Positions 4,311-26,674 of a DNA stretch of 64,000 nucleotides are shown piece by piece (positions within the stretch are counted from its first letter, which is position 1; the number at the start of each line of letters is the position of its first letter). The notes beneath the pieces were generated by a model, which was not told where the DNA came from, made no database searches, and saw nothing but the letters and a program-made list of their open reading frames with translations. Source of the DNA: Escherichia phage FFH2. Position numbers and translations under genes: made by a program. The stretch lies in the sequence record KJ190158, one strand, 5' to 3'.

Positions 4311-4897
4311 TCGGAATTGATGTAGATTTGACACTGGTAGATTCAGGAACAGCATGGTGGGAGTGGTTGGAGCGTTTGTATGGTCCAGCCAGTAAGACAG
4401 TCGCTAAACCTTCTAATGGACTGATGTATTACGATCTGTCAAAGTATTGGCCTGATCGCCCCAAAGAAAACATCATAGGGCCTTTTGATTTCTGGAGTGA
4501 CCCATTCCTCTACGACTTTCTTAAGCCTGAAGAGGGGGCTATTGAGGTTATGAAAGATTTGGTGGCTCGTGGTCACAAGCTTGCATTTATCTCGGTATGC
4601 AAGAAAGGTCACCTTGCATCTAAATCAAGGTTCTTAAAGCGTTGGACCAGTGATTTTATGGATCTGGACGATCACACCCAGGGTCACGGCTTCTACGCCA
4701 CACATTTCAAAGGAAATGTGGCTGTAGATGTTATAATTGACGACAGGCATGAATACCTTAACCAATTCGCTTCACGACCTGAAGTTATTAAAATCCTAAA
4801 AGATACGCCTTATGAGCAATTCGAGGAGTTAAAGGTCAGTGTTGACTATACCGCTAATAGTTGGTATAAAATAGGAAAGTTTTTAGAAGGTATTTGA
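4304..4897 (+). CDS. HAD-family 5'(3')-deoxyribonucleotidase-like
   Basis: N-terminal GIDVDLTLVD DxD motif typical of HAD nucleotidases. Confidence 0.55.
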   Translation: MLIGIDVDLTLVDSGTAWWEWLERLYGPASKTVAKPSNGLMYYDLSKYWPDRPKENIIGPFDFWSDPFLYDFLKPEEGAIEVMKDLVARGHKLAFISVCKKGHLASKSRFLKRWTSDFMDLDDHTQGHGFYATHFKGNVAVDVIIDDRHEYLNQFASRPEVIKILKDTPYEQFEELKVSVDYTANSWYKIGKFLEGI

Positions 4898-4898
4898 A

Positions 4899-5099
4899 AT
4901 GGGCAGATGTTCTAAAGGTGGCGATCCTGTAGTCAGATACGGTGACTGGCTGGAGGTATATGATCTGGGGGGTAAGCTAGTGTATGCCTCCAGGATCACC
5001 CAAGATATGTGCTCTGATATGTTTAACAGATACCTTGCATTTAAGGCCAATATAAACCCAGACGAAATTTCCAAAATTAAAACAAGGAGAGCTAAATAA
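4899..5099 (+). CDS. hypothetical protein
   Basis: ORF only. Confidence 0.4.
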   Translation: MGRCSKGGDPVVRYGDWLEVYDLGGKLVYASRITQDMCSDMFNRYLAFKANINPDEISKIKTRRAK

Positions 5100-6082
5100 T
5101 GCTAAAACTGTGCACTGCAAAGATCATTGCTGACAGCATTTCCGAGAAAGGTAAGCGTATCACCACTTTTGAACTAGAGTATCCTCGAATTATTCACTCA
5201 GAGCTTATGACGCACCGAGTATTCAGCCGAAACGCCATGTCTTCCCGTGCAGTGCCTGTCGGCAAGATGCTGCAGCAGATTGTGGAGAATCCGGCAATGC
5301 CAGTTCGCTTCGGTGTAAATAAGCGAGGGATGGAAGATGGTGGGGAACACGATCAAAAGATCCGTGTAGAGTACACTGACATGGAGCTAACCCCTGAAGA
5401 GTTTTGGAAAGAAGCTGCAAAAAACGCCGCTTGGCATGCAGAGAAGTTCGCCCTTGCTGGTTACCATAAACAAGTATGTAACCGCTTAGTGGAGCCGTTT
5501 CAGCGCATGAAAACAGTTGTAACAAGCACAGAGTGGAATAATTTTTTCCATCTCCGTTGCTGGCACGATGCGGATCCTACGATTCAGATGTTGGCTAATT
5601 GTATGTGGGAAGCTCTTGTGAATAGCACTCCTGAAATCCTTAAACCAGGTCAATGGCACACTCCATATGTAGAGCACGTTTATTTGGACGGAGAGTTTAA
5701 CTACGCTGTACGTGACACAGAAGGAAAGCTCTGCATTCTTGATACTAAAGAAGCTCTGTCTATTAGTGCTAGTTGCTGTGCACAAGTATCTTATCGAAAT
5801 ATTGACAGCACGTTTGAAAAGGCAGACAGTGTGGCTAAAAAATTGATTGGTGGGGATCGTATTCATGCAAGCCCTTACGAACACCAGGCAACACCTATGG
5901 ATCATGATAACGCAATGGAACGTTTAAACTACTACCTATCTTCATGTGAAATCACACAAGACATTAGTACTTGGCAGGAAGGTGTAACCCATCAAGACCG
6001 TGATGGTAAATTCTGGTCTGCCAACTTTTGTGGGTGGGTTCAGCACAGACAACTGCTTAATAACCACTTCGTGAAAGGTTAA
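5099..6082 (+). CDS. thyX: Flavin-dependent thymidylate synthase ThyX-like
   Basis: THRVFSRNAMSSRA matches ThyX RHRxxSxNxxSxR signature; RBS aaggaga. Confidence 0.6.
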   Translation: MLKLCTAKIIADSISEKGKRITTFELEYPRIIHSELMTHRVFSRNAMSSRAVPVGKMLQQIVENPAMPVRFGVNKRGMEDGGEHDQKIRVEYTDMELTPEEFWKEAAKNAAWHAEKFALAGYHKQVCNRLVEPFQRMKTVVTSTEWNNFFHLRCWHDADPTIQMLANCMWEALVNSTPEILKPGQWHTPYVEHVYLDGEFNYAVRDTEGKLCILDTKEALSISASCCAQVSYRNIDSTFEKADSVAKKLIGGDRIHASPYEHQATPMDHDNAMERLNYYLSSCEITQDISTWQEGVTHQDRDGKFWSANFCGWVQHRQLLNNHFVKG

Positions 6083-17951: not shown

Positions 17952-18191
17952 ATGTACAAGTCATTCTCAATCTACTCAAGACAGGCGAAACACTACACAG
18001 AGATCCTGATCACTCAGAAAAAGTCTGTAGAAGGTGAGTGGGAGTATCACCATAAAATGTTGCGTCCAGATTGGGTTTTTGATAGACTTATTGCTATGAT
18101 CCCTCTTGGAGAAGTATACCCTCTGACAGGTCATAGGGATGCTTGGGATTTAATTGATTACATAGATTCATTTAAGGAGCCCAGTGTATGA
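17952..18191 (+). CDS. hypothetical protein
   Basis: ATG 17952 after agagggggt RBS. Confidence 0.4.
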   Translation: MYKSFSIYSRQAKHYTEILITQKKSVEGEWEYHHKMLRPDWVFDRLIAMIPLGEVYPLTGHRDAWDLIDYIDSFKEPSV

Positions 18192-18625: not shown

Positions 18626-18859
18626 ATGAAAGTTAAATTTCTTACAGATTTAGGGTACCCTTCCTTGGTTGACTGCATTGGTAAAATTGTGGAAGCAAAA
18701 CGGCTATCTGCAAACGATAATGTTGTCATGGTTAAGGGAAAAGATTTATTAGCTGCAGGTGCAGAGTCTGGCAGGATCTCTCCTGACTATACATATTACT
18801 TATCTTTAAGTAATCTACCAGAACGAGGCGGCAAAGGCCTTGAAGTTGTGGAGGAGTGA
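18626..18859 (+). CDS. Small acidic protein, MKVK-family paralog
   Basis: MKVKFL N-terminus, KGKDLLAAGA core, EVVEE C-terminus shared with 22289-26674 array. Confidence 0.5.
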   Translation: MKVKFLTDLGYPSLVDCIGKIVEAKRLSANDNVVMVKGKDLLAAGAESGRISPDYTYYLSLSNLPERGGKGLEVVEE

Positions 18860-19401
18860 CAGGTATGCTTCTGATTAACTGGGAAGACCTCTATGGGGAC
18901 AAAGACCCTGTTGCGTTTGTTGATCGTAGATGGAGATACACTGAAGAACAACTGGCTGCAAAAAATTTAACTGCGAAACGCAGAAAGATCATCCAGTGCA
19001 AGTACAAATACGCACAATTTGCTGCAAAAGTGTCTCCACAAATCGAGAGTTTTGTACTTAAATTGTATGACGAATACCTCAAGTTCAAATTGGATTTTGT
19101 ACAGGTGTACCGTGCACAGGTACGCCCAGATACCAACATATGTAGATGGAAGGTTGTTTGTGACGGTAAAGATTTGCCGCTCAGCTTGACAATTGAGTGG
19201 CGTTATGGGTATCATGAGTGTGGTCTGTATGATACTTGGGATGTCATTGTAGATCCTGCTAAGTACCTGAACACAGAGGAGCTGGAATATATCAATAAGG
19301 TTATTCTCGATATGTTTTTCAGATACACCCGTGAAAACTCTGAGAAAGAACGGGATGATTTTCTTGACACCATCAGCAACCATCTGCAGTATACAATTTA
19401 A
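18856..19401 (+). CDS. hypothetical protein
   Basis: ORF only. Confidence 0.5.
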   Translation: MTGMLLINWEDLYGDKDPVAFVDRRWRYTEEQLAAKNLTAKRRKIIQCKYKYAQFAAKVSPQIESFVLKLYDEYLKFKLDFVQVYRAQVRPDTNICRWKVVCDGKDLPLSLTIEWRYGYHECGLYDTWDVIVDPAKYLNTEELEYINKVILDMFFRYTRENSEKERDDFLDTISNHLQYTI

Positions 19402-19419
19402 CCTACAAAGGGAGGGCTA

Positions 19420-19644
19420 ATGAGTATAAATGTTGTGCTAATAGGCTACCTGGTAATAGCCGTTATAACAGCGGTATTCTTGACAGGTATATGCATCGTG
19501 TCTAGACGAAAGGTGAAGTTTGATGATTTTATCACCATCATCACTGCTGCACCTTTTTGGCCTATTGTTATCTTCATCGTAATAATGTGCCTAGTTGATT
19601 ACTACAAGAATATTCGTAAGGAGAAAAAGGAGAGTAGGGATTGA
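19420..19644 (+). CDS. Small membrane protein (2 predicted TM)
   Basis: Hydrophobic segments VLIGYLVIAVITAVFL and FWPIVIFIVIMCLV. Confidence 0.5.
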   Translation: MSINVVLIGYLVIAVITAVFLTGICIVSRRKVKFDDFITIITAAPFWPIVIFIVIMCLVDYYKNIRKEKKESRD

Positions 19645-19875
19645 GACCGCACCTAAAACTGTTTATACTGTTCTTAAAGAGATTGCGTTCTACGCAGATC
19701 TTAGCCAGGCACCTTTATGGGAAAAGAGCATGTATTTAAAATGGTGCGTTAATTTAGGGAGACCTTCCAGTGTTTCAAGCCATGTTTATTGAGATGCTAT
19801 CTGGGGTATTGTTACTGGTAGCCATCTTAGGTGGTGCAGTTCTGATGTATAACTATCTTGAAAAAGGAGACAGCA

Positions 19876-20061
19876 ATGGCAAAAAATAAATCTTTAGAGC
19901 AGGCTGAAAACCTTCTCCACGAGCTGGTAAAGGAGTGGAAAGTTGAATACTCAGATTTTAATGCACGAGAGGGTGAAGATTATTGGCCTACGGAGCGCTC
20001 AGAGGGCGAATGGTATCAAGATTTTATAGAGTGGTTATATCAGACGTGCGATGAGGGGTGA
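19876..20061 (+). CDS. hypothetical protein
   Basis: ATG 19876 after aaaggaga. Confidence 0.4.
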   Translation: MAKNKSLEQAENLLHELVKEWKVEYSDFNAREGEDYWPTERSEGEWYQDFIEWLYQTCDEG

Positions 20062-20063
20062 CG

Positions 20064-20519
20064 ATGTTTGTTAAATATGTAAAAACGTGCCTCAACAGTC
20101 TTGGCAGAGAGCATTGGTACACCTTACTTGAAAAAGGAGAAATTTTAACAAAATCTGGAAAGATAACTTTGATACCCTTGGACGATAAAGACCCGTCACT
20201 CCTTGTCATAGATGATTACGTTACAGGTGTGTCGTACGAGGTCTCTGTGGAGAGGTTAATACGCAGAGCTGGCGGCCCTTGTGATCAAAGAGAGTATGTT
20301 TTCGATTCCGTTACAGAGAGGGATCATCCGTCTTTAATGTTCAGGATGGTAATCAGGGATATGAGGTCATCTATAGATAGGATCGTAAAGGACATTAAGG
20401 AACCTTTTAGGGTAAAAGTTAAGAAGTTTTTTGATTCTAAGATTAACATACTTGCTGTTGTGCTAGGCGTAATTCAACTTCTGTTAATTTTGCACTATTT
20501 TGAACTGTTGTTTAAGTAG
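20064..20519 (+). CDS. hypothetical protein with C-terminal TM helix
   Basis: ATG after gagggg; hydrophobic C-terminus. Confidence 0.45.
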   Translation: MFVKYVKTCLNSLGREHWYTLLEKGEILTKSGKITLIPLDDKDPSLLVIDDYVTGVSYEVSVERLIRRAGGPCDQREYVFDSVTERDHPSLMFRMVIRDMRSSIDRIVKDIKEPFRVKVKKFFDSKINILAVVLGVIQLLLILHYFELLFK

Positions 20520-20579
20520 TGTGCAACAAGGCACAAAGGATGTGCCATAATTAAACAAATTAAGAAAGAGGTAGAGAGA

Positions 20580-20927
20580 ATGTCAAAGATTAAATCGATA
20601 TTAATGTGGGTAGCTGTTGTGGCTTTTGTAGGATACTGGACTTGGGAAACTGAATTAAAAGATATCGGATATACCAGTCTTGAGAGCAAGGCATGCATTG
20701 GCATAACCGATGCATTCAGGCAAAATGCTATGGATCACGAATGTGTCGATGCAGATATAGATGAGAAACTGTCTAAGGACAAGGATTTTTACCATGGTCA
20801 TGCCTTGCTTGATAGTGGTGACACTGTAGAATTCTGGTCGTGGTTCCGTGAAGATGGAACAATAAAGACAGCAGTAAAGATTTCCAACAAAGAGTTAATG
20901 CTGTTGCAGCAGAAGGAGGTGCAATGA
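20580..20927 (+). CDS. hypothetical protein with N-terminal TM/signal anchor
   Basis: RBS agaggtagag; N-terminal ILMWVAVVAFVGYW. Confidence 0.5.
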   Translation: MSKIKSILMWVAVVAFVGYWTWETELKDIGYTSLESKACIGITDAFRQNAMDHECVDADIDEKLSKDKDFYHGHALLDSGDTVEFWSWFREDGTIKTAVKISNKELMLLQQKEVQ

Positions 20928-21211
20928 TTTGGATATCCTACACTGATGGCACCATGCTGTATACTGCAGGTACTAGGTATGAAGTTCAGGAGGACGATAA
21001 AAAATTTATCGTAAAAACATTTGACAAGGACGACAACCTTTTGTTAGAATTGACTTACAAGGTTGGGGAGGTATCTAGCATCCAATTGGATTGCGGTCAT
21101 AAAGATAACCCGCTCAAGAAACCTGGGGTAGGTAAAGCTTCAGAAGAACGCCTGTCTCGTATTGCAGAAAGCGTTTCTGCACAAAAATCTAAGAAGAGGA
21201 TTAGAAAATGA
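20924..21211 (+). CDS. hypothetical protein
   Basis: ORF, coupled start. Confidence 0.45.
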   Translation: MIWISYTDGTMLYTAGTRYEVQEDDKKFIVKTFDKDDNLLLELTYKVGEVSSIQLDCGHKDNPLKKPGVGKASEERLSRIAESVSAQKSKKRIRK

Positions 21212-21408
21212 GTGACAAAATTCTTAAATTTAATACCTACTATGAGAATGATTTGAACGATCTGTATTATATAGTGCGTAGCGAAAACCCAAATGTAGTA
21301 CTGTTTTGCCGAGAACCTTTCAAAAAAGAGGAGATTGAATCTACCATGGATGTGGATCAGATTTCACACCTGCTGCTCCTTGGATCATTAAAAGAGGCAG
21401 TATTCTAA
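21208..21408 (+). CDS. hypothetical protein
   Basis: ORF, coupled start. Confidence 0.45.
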   Translation: MSDKILKFNTYYENDLNDLYYIVRSENPNVVLFCREPFKKEEIESTMDVDQISHLLLLGSLKEAVF

Positions 21409-21427
21409 ACCAGGATGGAGGGTTTTT

Positions 21428-21613
21428 ATGAAGCACTATTGTCTGTCTGGTAGAATGGGTGCAGATTGTGATTGGGTTTTCTTAAAACTTGTCAGCATTC
21501 GAGAGTCCATTTCAGAGGAAGAGCAAGAAAGTGAGCTAATGTCCTGGATCAACCATTACGGTAACACTTTTCGGCATGTTAAGGTAGAAGAGTTGCCAAG
21601 TGAGGCTGATTGA
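21428..21613 (+). CDS. hypothetical protein
   Basis: ORF only. Confidence 0.4.
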   Translation: MKHYCLSGRMGADCDWVFLKLVSIRESISEEEQESELMSWINHYGNTFRHVKVEELPSEAD

Positions 21614-21615
21614 CT

Positions 21616-21705
21616 ATGATTGCATCAATATTAACGTTTATGGGTGGCGTGGCATTCGGATTCATTGTTTGCCTGTTTATAGTGATTATGTCTATGCGAG
21701 GCTGA
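21616..21705 (+). CDS. Small hydrophobic peptide (29 aa)
   Basis: MIASILTFMGGVAFGFIVCLFIVIMSMRG fills gap between two ORFs. Confidence 0.3.
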   Translation: MIASILTFMGGVAFGFIVCLFIVIMSMRG

Positions 21706-21708
21706 ATT

Positions 21709-22005
21709 ATGAAACTTTTTGAGTGGTTTAAAAAGTTTAAATATAAAGCTGTAGCCATCGTGCCGTGGTCCATTCAGTGGGTTGATGAAGGTGGTCTACC
21801 AATACCTGGTGACAAAGATACTGGGTACTGGATTATGATGGAGAACGGGTTTGGAAAGCGAAAGTATACGTGCACAAACTCTACTCGATCTGCGCTTAAT
21901 AGAGTGCCTGGTTACAAACTTATGGTTGTGTGGAAAATGTCAGGCGTGCCTCCAGCTAATGCTCAATTTCTTACTGACAATCCGACCACGGTAGAGGAAG
22001 ATTGA
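21709..22005 (+). CDS. hypothetical protein
   Basis: ORF only. Confidence 0.45.
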   Translation: MKLFEWFKKFKYKAVAIVPWSIQWVDEGGLPIPGDKDTGYWIMMENGFGKRKYTCTNSTRSALNRVPGYKLMVVWKMSGVPPANAQFLTDNPTTVEED

Positions 22006-22007
22006 TA

Positions 22008-22289
22008 ATGAAAAAGATTAACAGTGGTGAAGTTGAGTTTAAACTTGTCGGGAAAGGCACTTACTGGGAAGTTCGTCAAAAGGTATATTTGTTCGGTCTT
22101 ATTCCCTATTGGTCTAAATTCTACTGGGGAGCTAACGAGTGGGGAAGATACGCCACCAAATCAATGGCACTTATTGGTATAGCAGAGTACATTGCAGCCA
22201 GAGATAGGGTTGGAGACACTTATTACTATACTGCGGACGATATTCGTAACAGTGTTTACGTCCCACAACCACCTGATGGAGACCGTTGA
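22008..22289 (+). CDS. hypothetical protein
   Basis: ATG 22008 after gaggaag. Confidence 0.45.
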   Translation: MKKINSGEVEFKLVGKGTYWEVRQKVYLFGLIPYWSKFYWGANEWGRYATKSMALIGIAEYIAARDRVGDTYYYTADDIRNSVYVPQPPDGDR

Positions 22290-22513
22290 TGAAAGTTAAA
22301 GTTTTAGATTCAAGCTTCTATATTGGTCAGGAGCCTTTAGTAGGAAAAGTGTTTACTGCTGTCCCTAACGAAGATTACCCTGACCTTTTAAAAATAAAAG
22401 GAGCAGATCTTATTGCCGCTGGTGCATCTCAGGAATGCTTTGACAGTCAGTGGACCTACAACTTTGCCCTAGGTGAGGATGTAGAGGTAGTGGAGGACGA
22501 TCATGAAGGTTAA
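22289..22513 (+). CDS. Small acidic protein, MKVK-family paralog
   Basis: MKVKVLDSSFYIGQ..IKGADLIAAGA..VEVVEDD. Confidence 0.5.
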   Translation: MKVKVLDSSFYIGQEPLVGKVFTAVPNEDYPDLLKIKGADLIAAGASQECFDSQWTYNFALGEDVEVVEDDHEG

Positions 22514-22757
22514 AATTCTTGATTCTAACGTCTACTTGGGACAATCCTTCCTGAATGGAAAGGTCGTTCCTGCGGTATACTTTGAAGGGTTGCCGTGGGA
22601 TGATCCTGTGCGGCAACATCACAGTTATGTAGGCCACAACGTGGTGTTTATCTTGGGATCAGACCTGATCACCGCTGGTGCACCTGAATATTATTTCGGG
22701 GAAGAGTCCTACTATGCCTTTGGGGTAGGGTCAGATGCAGATATTGTAGAGCTGTGA
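22503..22757 (+). CDS. Small acidic protein, MKVK-family paralog
   Basis: MKVKILDSNVYLGQ..LGSDLITAGA..DIVEL. Confidence 0.5.
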   Translation: MKVKILDSNVYLGQSFLNGKVVPAVYFEGLPWDDPVRQHHSYVGHNVVFILGSDLITAGAPEYYFGEESYYAFGVGSDADIVEL

Positions 22758-22769
22758 TGGGTAACCGTT

Positions 22770-23168
22770 GTGAAAAATAAACTGTTTAAAGTTACAATGA
22801 AAATTCGCGGGGCTTGGAGCGTAAAGCAAGGGCGTATTCCAGAATTTGAGAAAGACTTCTACGTAGTCTCCACCTCGGAGGAGGCTGCATGCTGGCAGGC
22901 TGGCTATGCCTATGCAAGAACCTGGTACGAAGGGTACCAGACTGGGGGCTATGACGGAGAAATTATCAGCAAGGGTGTAGAAGAAATTAATGTGTTGACA
23001 AGTGAAAAAGTTTTTGTTATAGTGCATCCAGATTCCAGAGTGAAGCATTACTGGAATGCCAGAACAAAAACTTGGACACCGTTTGCAGATTCTGCTACGC
23101 CACTTTTAAACCAGAAAGCTCTTGACTCTGCCCCAAGTTATGGGGTTGTTGAAGAAAAGCTAAACTGA
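22770..23168 (+). CDS. hypothetical protein, paralog of 24975-25370
   Basis: Shares VIVHPDSRVKHYWNARTKTWTPF with VMRHPHSNIAYYWDVLNNEWTPDL. Confidence 0.5.
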   Translation: MKNKLFKVTMKIRGAWSVKQGRIPEFEKDFYVVSTSEEAACWQAGYAYARTWYEGYQTGGYDGEIISKGVEEINVLTSEKVFVIVHPDSRVKHYWNARTKTWTPFADSATPLLNQKALDSAPSYGVVEEKLN

Positions 23169-23185
23169 AACAGTGAGGTGTCACC

Positions 23186-23476
23186 ATGATGGATTTAATT
23201 CTAAATATTGATAACGCAGGAGAGTTTAAAGACGATGGTGTAACAAGCATGGACAAACCCTGCTCTGCTAAGGTTGACTCAAAATGGACCTACAAGTTTG
23301 ACGGAGAGATCTTCGCAAATGATGAGAAGGTTGTAGATGCTGCAGCCATTTTAAACGCTCTAGGGTACGACCCTGTGAATTCTTTGATCAAGGATCCTGT
23401 TGAGTTTGCAGAGTATGTTCGAAAAATGGCAGATCTTGCTGTGGATATTTTAAAAACTATCGACAACAAGCTGTAA
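23186..23476 (+). CDS. hypothetical acidic protein
   Basis: ORF only. Confidence 0.45.
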   Translation: MMDLILNIDNAGEFKDDGVTSMDKPCSAKVDSKWTYKFDGEIFANDEKVVDAAAILNALGYDPVNSLIKDPVEFAEYVRKMADLAVDILKTIDNKL

Positions 23477-23482
23477 AAACTG

Positions 23483-23511
23483 TTGACACAACGCTTCAGA
23501 TTTAGTATCAT
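23483..23511 (+). promoter_or_regulatory. sigma70-type promoter TTGACA-N17-TATCAT
   Basis: Consensus -35; followed by hairpin 23521-23544 and hpf ATG 23559. Confidence 0.5.
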
Positions 23512-23558
23512 TGTTTTCAAAGAGGGTTTGGTTCCCTCTTCTTTAAAAGGAACACGTT

Positions 23559-23876
23559 ATGCAAATTGAAATCACTGGCAACGTAGAAATCACTGAAGGT
23601 ATGGTGTCTTTCATTTCCCACAAAATGTCTAAGCTGGAGCGTTTGCACCCCTCTGCCAACTATGCACGTGTGAGTGTAAAAGTTGAAAATGATCACCAGG
23701 AAGTTATGGCGCTCATTTTTGACAATTCTGGAAAAGAAGTTATTGCCAGGGCTAAAGGTAGTGATGCTTACGAGGCAACTGACCGTATGGTAGATGTTGC
23801 AGCACGTCAGCTGGCTAAATGCGGTGGAAAGAAAGGTAAGGGGAAAGGCAAAGTAAAGATTGACTTTGGAGAATGA
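23559..23876 (+). CDS. hpf: Ribosome hibernation promoting factor / RaiA (YfiA) family homolog
   Basis: MQIEITGNVEITEGM..KLERL..VSVKVEN..GKEVIARAKGSDAYEATDRMVDVAARQLAK aligns along full length with E. coli HPF/RaiA. Confidence 0.8.
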   Translation: MQIEITGNVEITEGMVSFISHKMSKLERLHPSANYARVSVKVENDHQEVMALIFDNSGKEVIARAKGSDAYEATDRMVDVAARQLAKCGGKKGKGKGKVKIDFGE

Positions 23877-24013
23877 GGTGCTACAATGGGCGTGATTAAG
23901 AAACTAGTCCCAAATGTAGAGATTGCATGCTTTGAAATTATGTTTGCAATCGCAGTTGTAGTTAATGTGTTAGGTTACGGCTATTAATATCAAATAATTG
24001 AGGAGACCTCTAA

Positions 24014-24283
24014 ATGAAAATTAAATTATTCAAAACTGAGCTGGCAGACAAAAACTGTGGACTGGTTGAAGGCATGATTGTCGAAGCACGACCAGTTGAC
24101 TATATGAAGGTGGTTCGTGATGCCCTGGGTGAAGGTTTTGATCTGATGGAGCCAGCTCTGCGAGAAGATGTTATCGAGATGGCTAAAAAGCACACACCTG
24201 AAGGAATGGTGGTGTTTGTTGCACCAGGTAACGGAGAAGAGTTGATTGTAACTCCGGATGTGTATGAGATTGTAGAGGAATAA
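24014..24283 (+). CDS. Small acidic protein, MKVK-family paralog
   Basis: MKIKLFKTEL..YEIVEE. Confidence 0.5.
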   Translation: MKIKLFKTELADKNCGLVEGMIVEARPVDYMKVVRDALGEGFDLMEPALREDVIEMAKKHTPEGMVVFVAPGNGEELIVTPDVYEIVEE

Positions 24284-24374
24284 TCCTGCTTGGATTAGCA
24301 TACTTCCTCGACAAGGAAGGTTTGTAATTATTTGTGGGAAAGGAATCCCAATCTCTTACCATAGGTGATACTAT

Positions 24375-24638
24375 ATGATTGTTTATTTTAAAACTTCAGG
24401 TGGATACCCTGATTCTCAAAGCTTGATCGGAAAAACGTGCACAGCATACTCACCTCTTGATGAGGAGGTAGGCGATATTCTACGAAATATGTATCGGATT
24501 GATCCCCAAGAAGCCTTTGATCAAAACCTTGTATTTGTCAAGGGCTCAGACATGAAGTCTTTGGGAGCATTCCCTGAAGCAGATGATGATGCCGTTTATT
24601 CGTTCATGACCCCTTTTGAAGCTATGGTTGTCGGGTGA
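24375..24638 (+). CDS. Small acidic protein, MKVK-family related
   Basis: IGKTCTAY..VKGSDMKSLGA core. Confidence 0.45.
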   Translation: MIVYFKTSGGYPDSQSLIGKTCTAYSPLDEEVGDILRNMYRIDPQEAFDQNLVFVKGSDMKSLGAFPEADDDAVYSFMTPFEAMVVG

Positions 24639-24642
24639 TAAT

Positions 24643-24975
24643 ATGAAAGTACGCTTTATTGGTGAAACAATTCCTGTGCATCTCCGGTCGCCTGAAGATT
24701 CTGCAGATCTTGCATCTCAGAAGGCGAGAGGTTATGATAAGAAAGTAATCTCAACCGATGTAGAACTTGAGGCTACTAGTCTACCTGACCCTGCTGCATT
24801 CTTTAATCATTATGGATACTATTTCAGCAATCTGATGAATATCGGTGAGCTTGTGTTTATTAGTGGTGGAGAAATTGTTAGCAAGCTTGGCGGCGATCCG
24901 GATGTCTTTCATGAAACCTGTCCTTTTGCATTTGTGGTAGGTTCAGATGTGGAAGTTATTGAGGAGGTGCGGTAA
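24643..24975 (+). CDS. Small acidic protein, MKVK-family related
   Basis: ATG 24643; C-terminal GSDVEVIEEV. Confidence 0.45.
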   Translation: MKVRFIGETIPVHLRSPEDSADLASQKARGYDKKVISTDVELEATSLPDPAAFFNHYGYYFSNLMNIGELVFISGGEIVSKLGGDPDVFHETCPFAFVVGSDVEVIEEVR

Positions 24976-25370
24976 TGGTAAGCCTATACCGTGTTGAGTA
25001 TAGCTCAGATACTGTGTACAACGTAAGAAGCAAAGATCGCAGCGACAGAGTGCAAGAAATGTATGTTCTTGCCGACAGTCCGTTATCTGCAGCGTTCAAG
25101 GCAGGGGCTCTTGCATCTCGTTGGAAATTTGAAGGCGGATCTTTCTATGAAGAAACCCTTGAAGATTCTGTTGTTATTTCTTCTGTAGAGGTTTCAGATG
25201 ACTACGAAGGGAAAAAGTTCGTAATGCGGCACCCACACAGCAACATTGCGTACTACTGGGATGTTCTGAACAACGAGTGGACCCCAGATCTTCAGAAGGC
25301 TACTGTGCTAACACCGTTTTTGGCAGATAAGTTCCCACCAGAAGGTAATTTATCCGCACTGTTTCAGTAA
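24975..25370 (+). CDS. hypothetical protein, paralog of 22770-23168
   Basis: Shared HPxS..YW..WTP block. Confidence 0.5.
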   Translation: MVSLYRVEYSSDTVYNVRSKDRSDRVQEMYVLADSPLSAAFKAGALASRWKFEGGSFYEETLEDSVVISSVEVSDDYEGKKFVMRHPHSNIAYYWDVLNNEWTPDLQKATVLTPFLADKFPPEGNLSALFQ

Positions 25371-25388: not shown

Positions 25389-25417
25389 TTGACAACACCA
25401 ACCCTGTGTGAAATAAT
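25389..25417 (+). promoter_or_regulatory. sigma70-type promoter TTGACA-N17-AATAAT
   Basis: Consensus -35 with A/T-rich -10. Confidence 0.45.
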
Positions 25418-25449: not shown

Positions 25450-25707
25450 ATGAAGATTAAACTGAAAAACCTTGAAATGGCAGAGATTCAGGATGGTGTT
25501 GATTTCCGCTCTAAAGATGGTGACATCTTAGAGGTAAATCTTCCAACCTACGAGCTGATTAAAGGTTTTGGCAACGTTCAGGAAGAGGATATTCCAGAAA
25601 TTCTTATGATGTTGATTCTTGACGGAACTGTGTTTGTAGGTGAAGGTGAGAACGCTATTGCAATCCCAGGCCATTTTTATGAAGTAGTTGACGAAGAGGT
25701 GCTGTAA
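25450..25707 (+). CDS. Small acidic protein, MKVK-family paralog
   Basis: MKIKLKNLE..FYEVVDEEVL; ATG after gggag. Confidence 0.5.
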   Translation: MKIKLKNLEMAEIQDGVDFRSKDGDILEVNLPTYELIKGFGNVQEEDIPEILMMLILDGTVFVGEGENAIAIPGHFYEVVDEEVL

Positions 25708-26058
25708 ATGAAAGTAGAAATTACCGGTTTTGATGTGAATGTGGTTCCGGAAGATATTTTAGCTAAACTTCCAGAAGGTTTTGGTAACGGCGTTGTGGTG
25801 GATGCTGTTCCTCCTACCAAAGACATTCTGCTGCAGTATGGTGTAGCAGAGGAAGATGTCGATAAAGTTCTTACAATGATGGCAATCGATCGTGTTGTCG
25901 TTGTTAAAGGTCTCGATAATTTTGAGAGTGATCCACTGATTATTCGTGGAGATGACTACAAAATCATCGATAATGAAGGCCAAGAGTTCTATGAGCCTTG
26001 TGCAGAAGATATTCTTAACTTATTACTGGAAGCAGGCACCGAAGAGGAGGACGAATAA
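25708..26058 (+). CDS. Small acidic protein, MKVK-family paralog
   Basis: MKVEITGFDV..; strongly acidic tail. Confidence 0.5.
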   Translation: MKVEITGFDVNVVPEDILAKLPEGFGNGVVVDAVPPTKDILLQYGVAEEDVDKVLTMMAIDRVVVVKGLDNFESDPLIIRGDDYKIIDNEGQEFYEPCAEDILNLLLEAGTEEEDE

Positions 26059-26387
26059 TGAAGATTGACCCGTTACTGAAGGCTCGTGCAGAAAAAGCGT
26101 ACACCATTAAGTTGACCAACTTGGTTCCTACTTGTCATCCGGATGTAGGTTGGCCCGAAGGTTTGGTGGAGGGAACTGTAACAGCTGCATACCTTCCTAA
26201 CATCAAATACCTCATGGAAATCTTGGAGCTGGATGAGGAAACGGCAGAAGAGTTCCAGTTGGACATGAAACAAAGTGGGACTCTGGTTATTCACGGGTGG
26301 TATAATACTAAAGATGCAGAAGACCCTCTGGTAACTTCTAATCTGGCATATGAAATCTTAGGGCCTTTGAACCTGGAGGAAGACTAA
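26058..26387 (+). CDS. Small acidic protein
   Basis: Coupled ORF in array. Confidence 0.5.
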   Translation: MKIDPLLKARAEKAYTIKLTNLVPTCHPDVGWPEGLVEGTVTAAYLPNIKYLMEILELDEETAEEFQLDMKQSGTLVIHGWYNTKDAEDPLVTSNLAYEILGPLNLEED

Positions 26388-26674
26388 TGAAAGATCTGGT
26401 TAAGATTAAGATTAAAGATACCAATGGAGAACTCAGTCATTTTGGAATTAATGATGGTGACGAGCTGATCGCACACCTGCCTACCAAGGAGGTTGTAAGC
26501 AAAGCAGTTGCCGGAGAAGAAGCTGCAATGCAGGCTGCAGGTGTGGATGAAAACTATGTAGCTATGTGCATGTGCCGAGATCAGGTTGTTCTGTATAAAG
26601 CGTATCGACCAAACGGAGCCACGGAGTGGCTTGTATTCCGACCCGAAGGATATGAAATCTTAGAGGCACTATGA
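26387..26674 (+). CDS. Small acidic protein
   Basis: Coupled ORF in array, C-terminal YEILEAL. Confidence 0.5.
   Translation: MKDLVKIKIKDTNGELSHFGINDGDELIAHLPTKEVVSKAVAGEEAAMQAAGVDENYVAMCMCRDQVVLYKAYRPNGATEWLVFRPEGYEILEAL

Follow-up and report, generated by a model that had tools for sequence, protein, structure and literature searches.

Two ancient A-A-B cassettes of small paralogous genes in the accessory region of a Vequintavirus

The window analysed here, i.e. the whole 64,000-nucleotide stretch of Escherichia phage FFH2 (record KJ190158), belongs to a Vequintavirus, an rV5-like E. coli myophage, and shows 99% identity with O157 typing phage 14 and with relatives of rV5. It contains two cassettes in which two genes of a small acidic family (A) are followed by one gene of another family (B), and the two A-A-B cassettes are ancient paralogues. 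The first cassette consists of A1, A2 and B1 (22289-23168) and the second of A3, A4 and B2 (24375-25370). All six are genuine protein-coding genes, and purifying selection acts on them. The explanation preferred here combines this ancient paralogy with an origin from a pair of genes followed by tandem copying, and with an accessory role in the binding of host proteins; as a whole it is given a probability of roughly 0.6. The family is also larger than a preliminary description of the sequence had stated, as there is a fifth A copy, a second family of acidic paralogues (C0 to C4), and a set of A homologues in temperate coliphages.

Both cassettes are located in a long plus-strand run of small accessory genes, downstream of genes for a ClpP-like protease and a methyltransferase, and the A, B and C genes, the genes between the cassettes, repeats D1 and D3 and the promoter P150 described below are on the plus strand. 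The tight spacing and the gene order are common to both. That this order occurs twice had been proposed in the preliminary description, and it is borne out: the ORFs are found at the coordinates claimed, the cassettes are collinear homologues, and both peptides quoted are present in B1 and B2. The term 'small MKVK genes' was accurate for A1 (MKVKVLDS...) and A2 (MKVKILDS...) but not for A3 (MIVYFKTS...) and A4 (MKVRFIGE...).

The A family comprises strongly acidic proteins of 74-110 amino acids, and it is mostly a single loop that sets the copies apart (0, 12, ~20 or ~45 extra residues). A1 (22289-22513) encodes a 74-aa protein with a pI of 4.1 and a predicted SH3-like beta-barrel. Its tandem paralogue A2 (22503-22757, 84 aa) has a start that overlaps the A1 stop by 11 nt. 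In the second cassette, A3 (24375-24638, 87 aa) carries an insertion of ~20 residues in the variable loop and A4 (24643-24975, 110 aa) one of ~45 residues. When all 467 ORFs of the window were searched with an iterative HMM, these four genes and a fifth copy, A0 (18626-18859, 77 aa), were recovered and nothing else. A0 is located outside the interval originally reported. Its E-value went from 3.7e-05 to 2.4e-33 and that of A3 from 6e-08 to 9e-36, while A4 was found at 4.8e-06 (and at 4e-05 to A2 by blastp). A0 is further linked to A1 by a Smith-Waterman z-score of 14, and it is 42% identical to a homologue from temperate phages and prophages (P0036).

The B genes are longer. B1 (22770-23168) encodes a 132-aa protein with the conserved HPxS..YW..WTP block and starts with GTG, a start that the alignment with the N-terminus of B2 supports. 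B2 (24975-25370) is its 131-aa paralogue; here the ATG overlaps the stop of A4 by 1 nt and is served by the ribosome-binding site GAGGAGG. With tblastn (E<=1e-3), B1 yielded Vequintavirus records only, and a note in the rV5 record that relates ORF142 (B1) to a protein of Listeria phage A118 could not be reproduced in this way. The 132-aa ORF at 18188, which adjoins A0, was considered as a third B gene and dropped since the B HMM does not find it. Matches of the B profile to proteins of 645-2655 aa were discarded as repeat-driven artefacts, each consisting of 4-8 weak stretches in Ig-like or low-complexity repeats. Against PDB sequences the B profile gave nothing below E 0.7, and the AF2 model of B, built from an alignment of 3 sequences, reached a pLDDT of only 56.

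The relationship between the copies is clear at the level of the proteins. B1 and B2 share 27.7% identity over 112 aa (blastp E 3.7e-11; Smith-Waterman z=19 with 500 shuffles), A1 and A2 share 40% (E 5e-15, z=24), and the A pairs between cassettes have shuffle z-scores of 5.0-8.8. In a self dot-plot of 22.2-25.4 kb, the collinear similarity that the preliminary description led one to expect is present in the translated comparison (tblastx) and almost absent from the DNA, so that the collinearity is visible only in the proteins. Two faint, collinear DNA matches are left, both of them coding: one of 74% over 46 nt joins the C-termini of A2 and A4, and one of 63% over 82 nt corresponds to the HPxS..YW..WTP block. 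No DNA similarity was found between the spacers of the two cassettes. With hardly any DNA similarity left and the synonymous sites between the paralogues saturated (pS 0.61-0.86), the duplication must be ancient. The B1/B2 split is also older than two uncultured lineages, L017 and L025, since the B gene of L017 is nearer to B1 (39%, against 29% to B2) and that of L025 (P0048) nearer to B2 (40%, against 27% to B1).

The same saturation bears on the question of selection. The preliminary description had suggested diversifying selection and a dN/dS comparison between the paralogues; the latter was computed and rejected, as the saturated synonymous sites make it uninterpretable. The suggestion itself is not supported. 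Among the orthologues from 11 Vequintavirus loci, all six genes are under purifying selection, with pN/pS values of 0.06-0.18 (A2 0.09, A3 0.08, A4 0.10, B1 0.06, B2 0.07). Even the divergent A2 allele of phage magaca (79% amino acid identity, pS 0.48) has a pN/pS of 0.30. The diversified parts are one loop of the A barrel, with 0 to ~45 inserted residues, and the pool of A2 alleles.

Between the cassettes, three further genes are found. The first, o23186 (23186-23476), encodes a 96-aa acidic protein with a weak A1-like patch, DSKWTYKF (z=3.8). It is followed by a homologue of the ribosome hibernation factor HPF/RaiA (23559-23876), which matches Pfam PF02482 with E 1.8e-12 and 48.2 bits, above the gathering score of 23.7, and is annotated as hpf in related phage records. 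The third, C0 (24014-24283), is the first member of the second small acidic family. Four further tandem paralogues, C1 to C4, are located at 25450-25707, 25708-26058, 26058-26387 and 26387-26674, so that the second cassette sits between C0 and C1. C0 to C4 were aligned from three lineages, and blastp gave E-values of 6e-4 (C0/C1), 1e-6 (C1/C2) and 2e-3 (C2/C4). C1 to C4 have pI values of 4.0-4.8 and shuffle z-scores of 5-8. A comparison of the A and C families with hhalign gave P=0.0035 with a probability of 9%, and A1/C0 a z-score of 0.4. The second cassette is flanked by a terminator-like hairpin (24303-24319) and, directly downstream of B2, by a sigma-70-like promoter (25389-25417; TTGACA-17-AATAAT with an extended -10 TG), which is named P150 in the annotation of the rV5 record. 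Promoter-like motifs are not enriched over shuffled sequence (15 found, 12.7 expected), and the presumable timing of expression is read from such motifs and the rV5 annotation only.

Recombination within the first cassette can be observed directly in natural variants. A 30-nt repeat in A1 (22400-22429) has a partner of 80% identity in A2 (22656-22685), and this repeat family, D1, encodes G[AS]DLI[AT]AGA. A natural hybrid (P0016, from the three samples L002-L004) joins the N-terminus of A1 to the C-terminus of A2, with the blast junction inside the D1 repeat. Another repeat family, D3, consists of a 19-nt sequence at 23093-23111 and its partner at 23338-23356 (74% identical). In L005, positions 23111-23331 of the window are deleted with the junction in this D3 repeat, which generates the natural B1::o23186 fusion protein P0004. 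The gene o23186 is the partner in a second natural fusion as well, A2::o23186 (P0017). A third repeat, D2 (83% over 24 nt), joins A2 and A4. Finally, phage Bas59 misses window positions 19261-23083, a 3.8-kb deletion, yet was isolated on K-12. The hybrids, the fusions and the Bas59 deletion show that the first cassette is dispensable and recombines at short repeats.

How the second cassette came about may be deduced in part from the two uncultured lineages. L017 contains a B1-type gene without A genes and without the second cassette; C0 is directly followed by C1, with no A3, A4 or B2 in between. L025 contains A1, A2, A3 and A4 and a B2-type gene, without B1. Only A3-A4-B2 travel together in the relatives, and A1, A2 and B1 are not gained or lost as a unit. 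The slot between x22002 and o23186 is filled differently in three lineages (A1-A2-B1, A1-A2-Y and Y-Z-B1). A scan of viral contigs for P0048 found nothing, and two matches from a metagenome scan both proved to be false positives. From the arrangement in the three lineages, the second cassette may have been inserted in the lineages of the window and L025, or it may have been lost in L017; both are compatible.

The preliminary description had interpreted the repeated order as a segmental duplication of a three-gene module. The A-A-B order does occur twice with components of common descent, but the copying of the trio in a single step is not favoured, as the A-family tree (neighbour-joining, 70 core columns, 100 bootstraps) pairs A1 with A2 (55%) and A3 with A4 (77%) and not by position (A1+A3 1%, A2+A4 14%). 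These bootstraps are modest, and the alignment of the A4 N-terminus is uncertain. The likeliest course is that an ancestral pair of one A and one B gene, or else two related cassettes, was duplicated or inserted again before the known Vequintavirus-like lineages split, after which an A gene would have been copied in tandem, independently within each cassette. The C0|C1 array of paralogues seems to have received the second cassette as a block. Recombination at short imperfect repeats would keep changing the arrays, giving rise to the hybrids, fusions and deletions.

An A-A-B unit may instead have existed beforehand and been copied once as a block, with gene conversion or unequal crossover within the block hiding the positional orthology. 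Concerted evolution of this kind could have wiped out the positional signal, as adjacent A genes do recombine (hybrid P0016); the identical order and tight spacing fit a block copy too, and the best DNA matches between the cassettes involve the second A genes (the A2/A4 C-termini and repeat D2). The bootstraps for the positional pairs nevertheless speak against it, and A4 resembles A1 (z 8.1) about as much as A2 (z 8.8), with A3 likewise close to parity (z 5.0 and 6.0). Moreover, A1 and A2 were already separate before the split from L025, where the A1 orthologues are 66% identical and the A2 orthologues 42% (A1/A2: 40%), so that any gene conversion must be very old. With relatives that contain A pairs without B, and B without A, a block copy is considered unlikely.

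Separate acquisition of the cassettes from other phages, where the repeated order would reflect a cassette common in a shared gene pool, is possible but doubtful. It would agree with the presence of the A family in unrelated temperate coliphages, prophages and an SU10-like podophage contig, with the different gene sets in the x22002-o23186 slot, with the localised A2 allele swap in phage magaca, and with the C array broken by the second cassette. However, in a search of 1.84 billion representative proteins the B family was seen only in Vequintavirus-like genomes, no outside donor with A-A-B was found, and the GC content is even throughout the region. The last explanation, chance or compositional similarity among small acidic ORFs, some of which would not be genes, could draw on the shortness and acidity of the proteins and on the negligible DNA similarity between the cassettes. 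It is refuted, with only a very slight residual probability, by the shuffle z-scores (19-24 for B1/B2 and A1/A2, 5-9 between cassettes), by the independent grouping of the genes in PHROGs, by the conservation of the genes in 11 genomes with pN/pS well below 1 and their presence in two distant lineages, and by the A1 model (pLDDT 92).

In this model, A1 is a five-stranded SH3-like barrel with the variable loop, a fold that is predicted for the A family in general. The best structural match in BFVD (E 1.3e-4, TM 0.81) is a protein of Shigella phage CM1 that has 87 aa, like A3, and is presumed to be the A3 orthologue. Against the PDB, Foldseek gave no significant match for the A1 model (E>=0.18). 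With SH3 domains, the KOW domains of Spt5/NusG and PsaE, the sequence identity is only 4-25%, and the resemblance would point to a common fold class and not to a family or function. None of the A, B and C proteins had a credible match in Pfam, NCBIfam or PADLOC, where PADLOC-DB covers defence and candidate-defence proteins and not anti-defence proteins.

The A and B proteins of the preferred explanation are probably accessory, expressed from sigma-70-type promoters, and bind host proteins. The variable loop and acidic surface of each paralogue would bind, and thereby modulate or block, a target of its own in the host or its defences, and such a role would make the genes useful in nature yet unnecessary on E. 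coli K-12 under laboratory conditions. It is a good deal more speculative, and rather improbable, that A, B and possibly C make up an extendable group of small acidic inhibitors around the hibernation factor gene, with loops tuned to different targets related to host defence or translation and with turnover through short-repeat recombination and temperate-phage exchange, which would amount to a Vequintavirus counter-defence island. If the suggested function were true, new small inhibitors that act on host or defence proteins could be drawn from the cassettes, in a genus that is widely used for the biocontrol of E. coli O157 and is represented in the BASEL collection. The cassettes would further offer a tidy example of accessory arrays that grow and shrink by short-repeat recombination.

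Large virulent phages such as T4 and SPO1 contain paralogous small accessory genes in their early or host-takeover regions. These genes are tightly packed, co-oriented, often acidic and individually dispensable in the laboratory; their copy number varies, and they are drawn from a shared phage pool. The genes described here are a conserved paralogue set of a kind common in large phages, and ordinary for such an accessory region, whereas the twofold A-A-B alternation between families is peculiar to the Vequintavirus genus. The genome paper of rV5 makes no mention of paralogues or duplication (PMC3606486). The paralogy is already implicit in the public classification, as the window proteins match PHROGs profiles over their full length (E 1e-32 to 1e-74): A1 (1.8e-38) and A2 (3.7e-32) match phrog_5009, and B1 (4.3e-74) and B2 (2.1e-66) match phrog_7379, both listed with unknown function. 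A3 matches phrog_5009 weakly (1.2e-4), and A4 gave no match with a cutoff of E<=0.01. Separate families (phrog_13920, 13661, 11868 and 12359) hold A3, A4 and the C genes in that classification, and PHROGs records neither a function nor a structure or cassette arrangement. The main practical value lies in the annotation, which gains five paralogues of A, two of B and five of C, a predicted SH3-like fold for the A proteins, and GTG as the corrected start of B1.

The A homologues of temperate phages (mEp021, mEp554 and MagusPhagus) and of E. coli prophages are proteins of 75 aa that keep the core motifs of the family, MKVKFL..GY..VGKVV..G.DLIAAGA..Y.FSL..LEVVEG (HMM E 1e-28). They occur singly, away from any B gene, among the small genes that separate the Q antiterminator from the holin gene, rather than in the accessory block of a lytic phage. 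Within the SU10-like contig, the A genes form a tandem A-A pair.

The A-A-B gene order is found twice on the plus strand. The first module consists of two small genes, A1 (22289-22513) and A2 (22503-22757), followed by the larger B1 (22770-23168), and the second of A3 (24375-24638), A4 (24643-24975) and B2 (24975-25370). The genes are co-oriented, with tight or overlapping spacing (11 nt overlap for A1/A2, 1 nt for A4/B2), and the open reading frames lie where the preliminary description had placed them. The repeated order that it had proposed is borne out at the protein level and by PHROGs. B1 and B2 are 27.7% identical over 112 residues (E 3.7e-11 in a 23-protein database); their alignment contains 35 invariant columns, including H86, P87, S89, Y94, W95 and W102-T-P, and their Smith-Waterman score exceeds that of shuffled sequences by 19 standard deviations. 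A1 and A2 share 40% identity (z=24 against shuffles), and A pairs spanning the two modules reach z=5.0-8.8. PHROGs independently assigns A1 and A2 to phrog_5009 (A3 as a weak match) and both B genes to phrog_7379. Two qualifications apply: A3 and A4 start with MIVY and MKVR, respectively, not with MKVK, and a self dot-plot of the region is nearly empty at the DNA level but for two faint collinear matches, one at the C-termini of A2/A4, the other at the HPxS..YW..WTP block.

Starting from A1 and A2, an iterative HMM converges on exactly five of all 467 window ORFs, A0-A4, and a B-family HMM recovers only B1 and B2 in the window. The fifth A copy, A0 (18626-18859, plus strand), lies 3.4 kb upstream of the two modules; downstream of it comes no B gene but an unrelated one of 175 aa, and among the copies it is the nearest to the temperate-phage and prophage homologues. 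The A paralogues keep a common core (MKVKxL, GY, vGKvv.A, vvfIkG.DLiaAGA, Y.F, vEvVE). Between strands 2 and 3 they carry an insertion of 0 (A0, A1), 12 (A2), ~20 (A3) or ~45 residues (A4). A1-A4 are strongly acidic (pI 4.1-4.6), with A0 as the exception (pI 5.4). A is predicted to fold as an SH3-like barrel that has an acidic surface and a single hypervariable loop.

Outside this phage group, an A homologue (P0036, 42% identical to A0) is present as a lone gene in E. coli prophages, in a small-gene block between the Q antiterminator and holin genes. The temperate phages mEp021, mEp554 and MagusPhagus encode A homologues that are 81-96% identical to P0036, and an SU10-like contig contains a tandem A-A pair followed by an HTH gene instead of B. 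The A genes belong to a pool that this phage group shares with temperate phages. B matches nothing in Pfam, NCBIfam, PADLOC or the PDB sequences. When 1.84 billion representative proteins were searched exhaustively with an HMM, only two credible full-length relatives emerged, P0047 and P0048, from the uncultured L017 and L025 lineages, respectively; long repetitive proteins that also scored were rejected as artefacts. The structure model of B is poor (pLDDT 56).

Five other small proteins, all very acidic (pI 4.0-4.8), make up a second paralogous family, whose genes surround and follow the second module: C0 (24014-24283) and C1-C4 (25450-26674), all on the plus strand and conserved in three lineages. 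In layout they are similar to A (MKIKL..., ...YEIVEE), but common descent with A is unproven (hhalign P=0.0035, probability 9%).

The arrangement can be compared with two uncultured, Vequintavirus-related lineages that have no close match among sequenced phages. The first comprises L017, L018 and L020 (IMG/VR contigs of ~121-141 kb), which are syntenic with the window. Here the upstream flanking gene x22002 is followed by Y (99 aa), Z (120 aa), a B1-type gene (39% identical to B1, 29% to B2), an o23186-like gene (o23186 lies downstream of B1), C0, C1, C2 and C4; A1, A2, A3, A4, B2 and the ribosome hibernation factor homologue HPF are all absent. The second, L025, is a 124-kb contig in GCA_034560175.1 with the order x22002, A1, A2, Y, o23186, HPF, C0, A3, A4, a B2-type gene, a P22_Y8K6-like gene and C1-C4. 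Its A genes are 66% (A1), 42% (A2), 58% (A3) and 54% (A4) identical to those of the window and its B2-type gene 40% to B2 and 27% to B1; B1 itself is absent. This gene content shows that the B1/B2 and A1/A2 splits are both older than these lineages, that A and B are separable, and that the slot between x22002 and o23186 can be occupied by interchangeable sets of genes. The second module falls exactly on the C0-C1 junction of L017, which suggests that it was inserted as a block into the C array. The Y gene (~96-99 aa, ...DPxVNRVxELIxK...; L017 4337-4636, L025 4068-4358, 96 aa) lies upstream of B1 in the former lineage and replaces it in the latter, which shows gene shuffling within the slot. 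The P22 Y8K6-like gene (PF27050; L025 6467-6763), between B2 and C1, is seen in the L025 lineage only.

The preliminary description had read the repeat as the duplication of a three-gene module. One-step copying of an A-A-B block predicts that A genes pair by position. In a neighbour-joining tree built for the A family from 16 sequences (70 core columns, 100 bootstraps), orthologue groups are supported at 99-100%, and the positional pairs obtain 1% (A1+A3) and 14% (A2+A4), which argues against such copying; the within-module pairs obtain 55% (A1+A2) and 77% (A3+A4). In the preferred reading, the starting point would be an ancestral pair of A and B, or a cassette related to it, that was copied or inserted a second time, with tandem duplication of A in each cassette afterwards. 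It is also possible that the whole block was duplicated and then homogenised inside each copy, or that the two cassettes were taken up separately from a shared pool.

Diversifying selection, which had been suggested, finds no support as an ongoing process. The paralogue dN/dS proposed as a check was computed but is not interpretable, since synonymous differences (proportion 0.61-0.86) have reached or nearly reached saturation. Across 11 Vequintavirus loci, drawn from isolates and metagenomic contigs, all six module genes are under purifying selection, with pooled pN/pS of 0.18 (A1), 0.09 (A2), 0.06 (B1), 0.08 (A3), 0.10 (A4) and 0.07 (B2), resembling adjoining genes such as HPF (0.06). The one local exception in diversity is the A2 allele of phage magaca (79% protein identity, pS 0.48), and even there pN/pS is only 0.30. 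The module copies are old genes, each constrained separately. The magaca allele (L013, MN850612.1, 5504-5758) lies among genes with 93-99% identity, and the protein clusters P0009-P0014 suggest that this divergent class is common, which points to localised mosaic exchange.

The gene array is still recombining. Three independent samples (L002-L004) have, in place of A1 and A2, a single 70-aa hybrid that joins the N-terminus of A1 to the C-terminus of A2. Its junction falls within a 30-nt repeat, 80% identical between both genes (22400-22429, 22656-22685), that encodes G.DLI.AGA, the most conserved motif of the family. P0017 is an A2::o23186 fusion from which B1 has been removed, and in L005 the loss of 220 bp (23111-23331) fuses B1 with o23186, the junction lying at a 19-nt repeat. 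Bas59 (EduardKellenberger), a BASEL phage isolated on E. coli K-12, is without 19261-23083, a deletion that takes out A1, A2, nine further small genes and ~104 codons from the start of B1. The first module is not required in the laboratory. The second is intact in all genomes examined but the L017 lineage. The 3.8-kb Bas59 deletion (L028, MZ501061.1) has ~15 nt of microhomology and fuses the gene that follows A0 with the final ~30 codons of B1 (4635-5102); the label 'putative glycosidase' on the fusion product is probably an annotation artefact. In the window, o23186 bears an A1-like patch (23274-23300 versus 22440-22466, 78% over 27 nt; DSKWTYKF versus DSQWTYNF, protein z=3.8), possibly the remnant of an A-type gene.

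The six module genes are real and conserved. Their products would bind host or defence proteins rather than act as enzymes or virion parts, each paralogue being specialised via its own loop, and B may act jointly with the A genes upstream; as A and B are found apart, their coupling is facultative at most. This function is proposed tentatively, the structural and evolutionary description is very probably correct, and overall confidence, combining the two, is about 0.6. Arrays built from paralogous small accessory genes are well known from large virulent phages. The paralogy described here is already implicit in PHROGs; the rV5 genome paper makes no mention of it. New, though modest, are the full extent of the families, the predicted fold of A, the finding that A and B can be separated, the naturally occurring hybrids and deletions, and the evidence that speaks against one-step block duplication and against diversifying selection.

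Both modules, equivalent to ORF140-142 and ORF147-149 of rV5, lie within a long plus-strand series of small, closely packed genes annotated as hypothetical, with ClpP-like protease and methyltransferase genes upstream. HPF (an HPF/RaiA homologue; 23559-23876, plus strand; Pfam PF02482, E 1.8e-12) lies between them; the window and L025 lineages have it, and the syntenic L017 lineage lacks it. Two sigma-70-like promoters, at 23483-23511 and 25389-25417, correspond to P144 and P150 in the rV5 annotation. At ~28-30 kb, GC skew and gene orientation flip from plus to minus strand, marking the end of the small-gene block. The region 21.5-27.5 kb matches 119 phage records, nearly all Escherichia Vequintavirus (rV5-like myophages), at 90-99% identity overall and 97.5-99% among the matches listed, where O157 typing phage 14 is the top match (99.0%). 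Eighteen GenBank records named 'Campylobacter phage' with C. jejuni as host (MG0656xx) also match this E. coli Vequintavirus region, at 95.6-99.2% identity in the hits listed for them; these host labels are probably wrong or reflect contamination.
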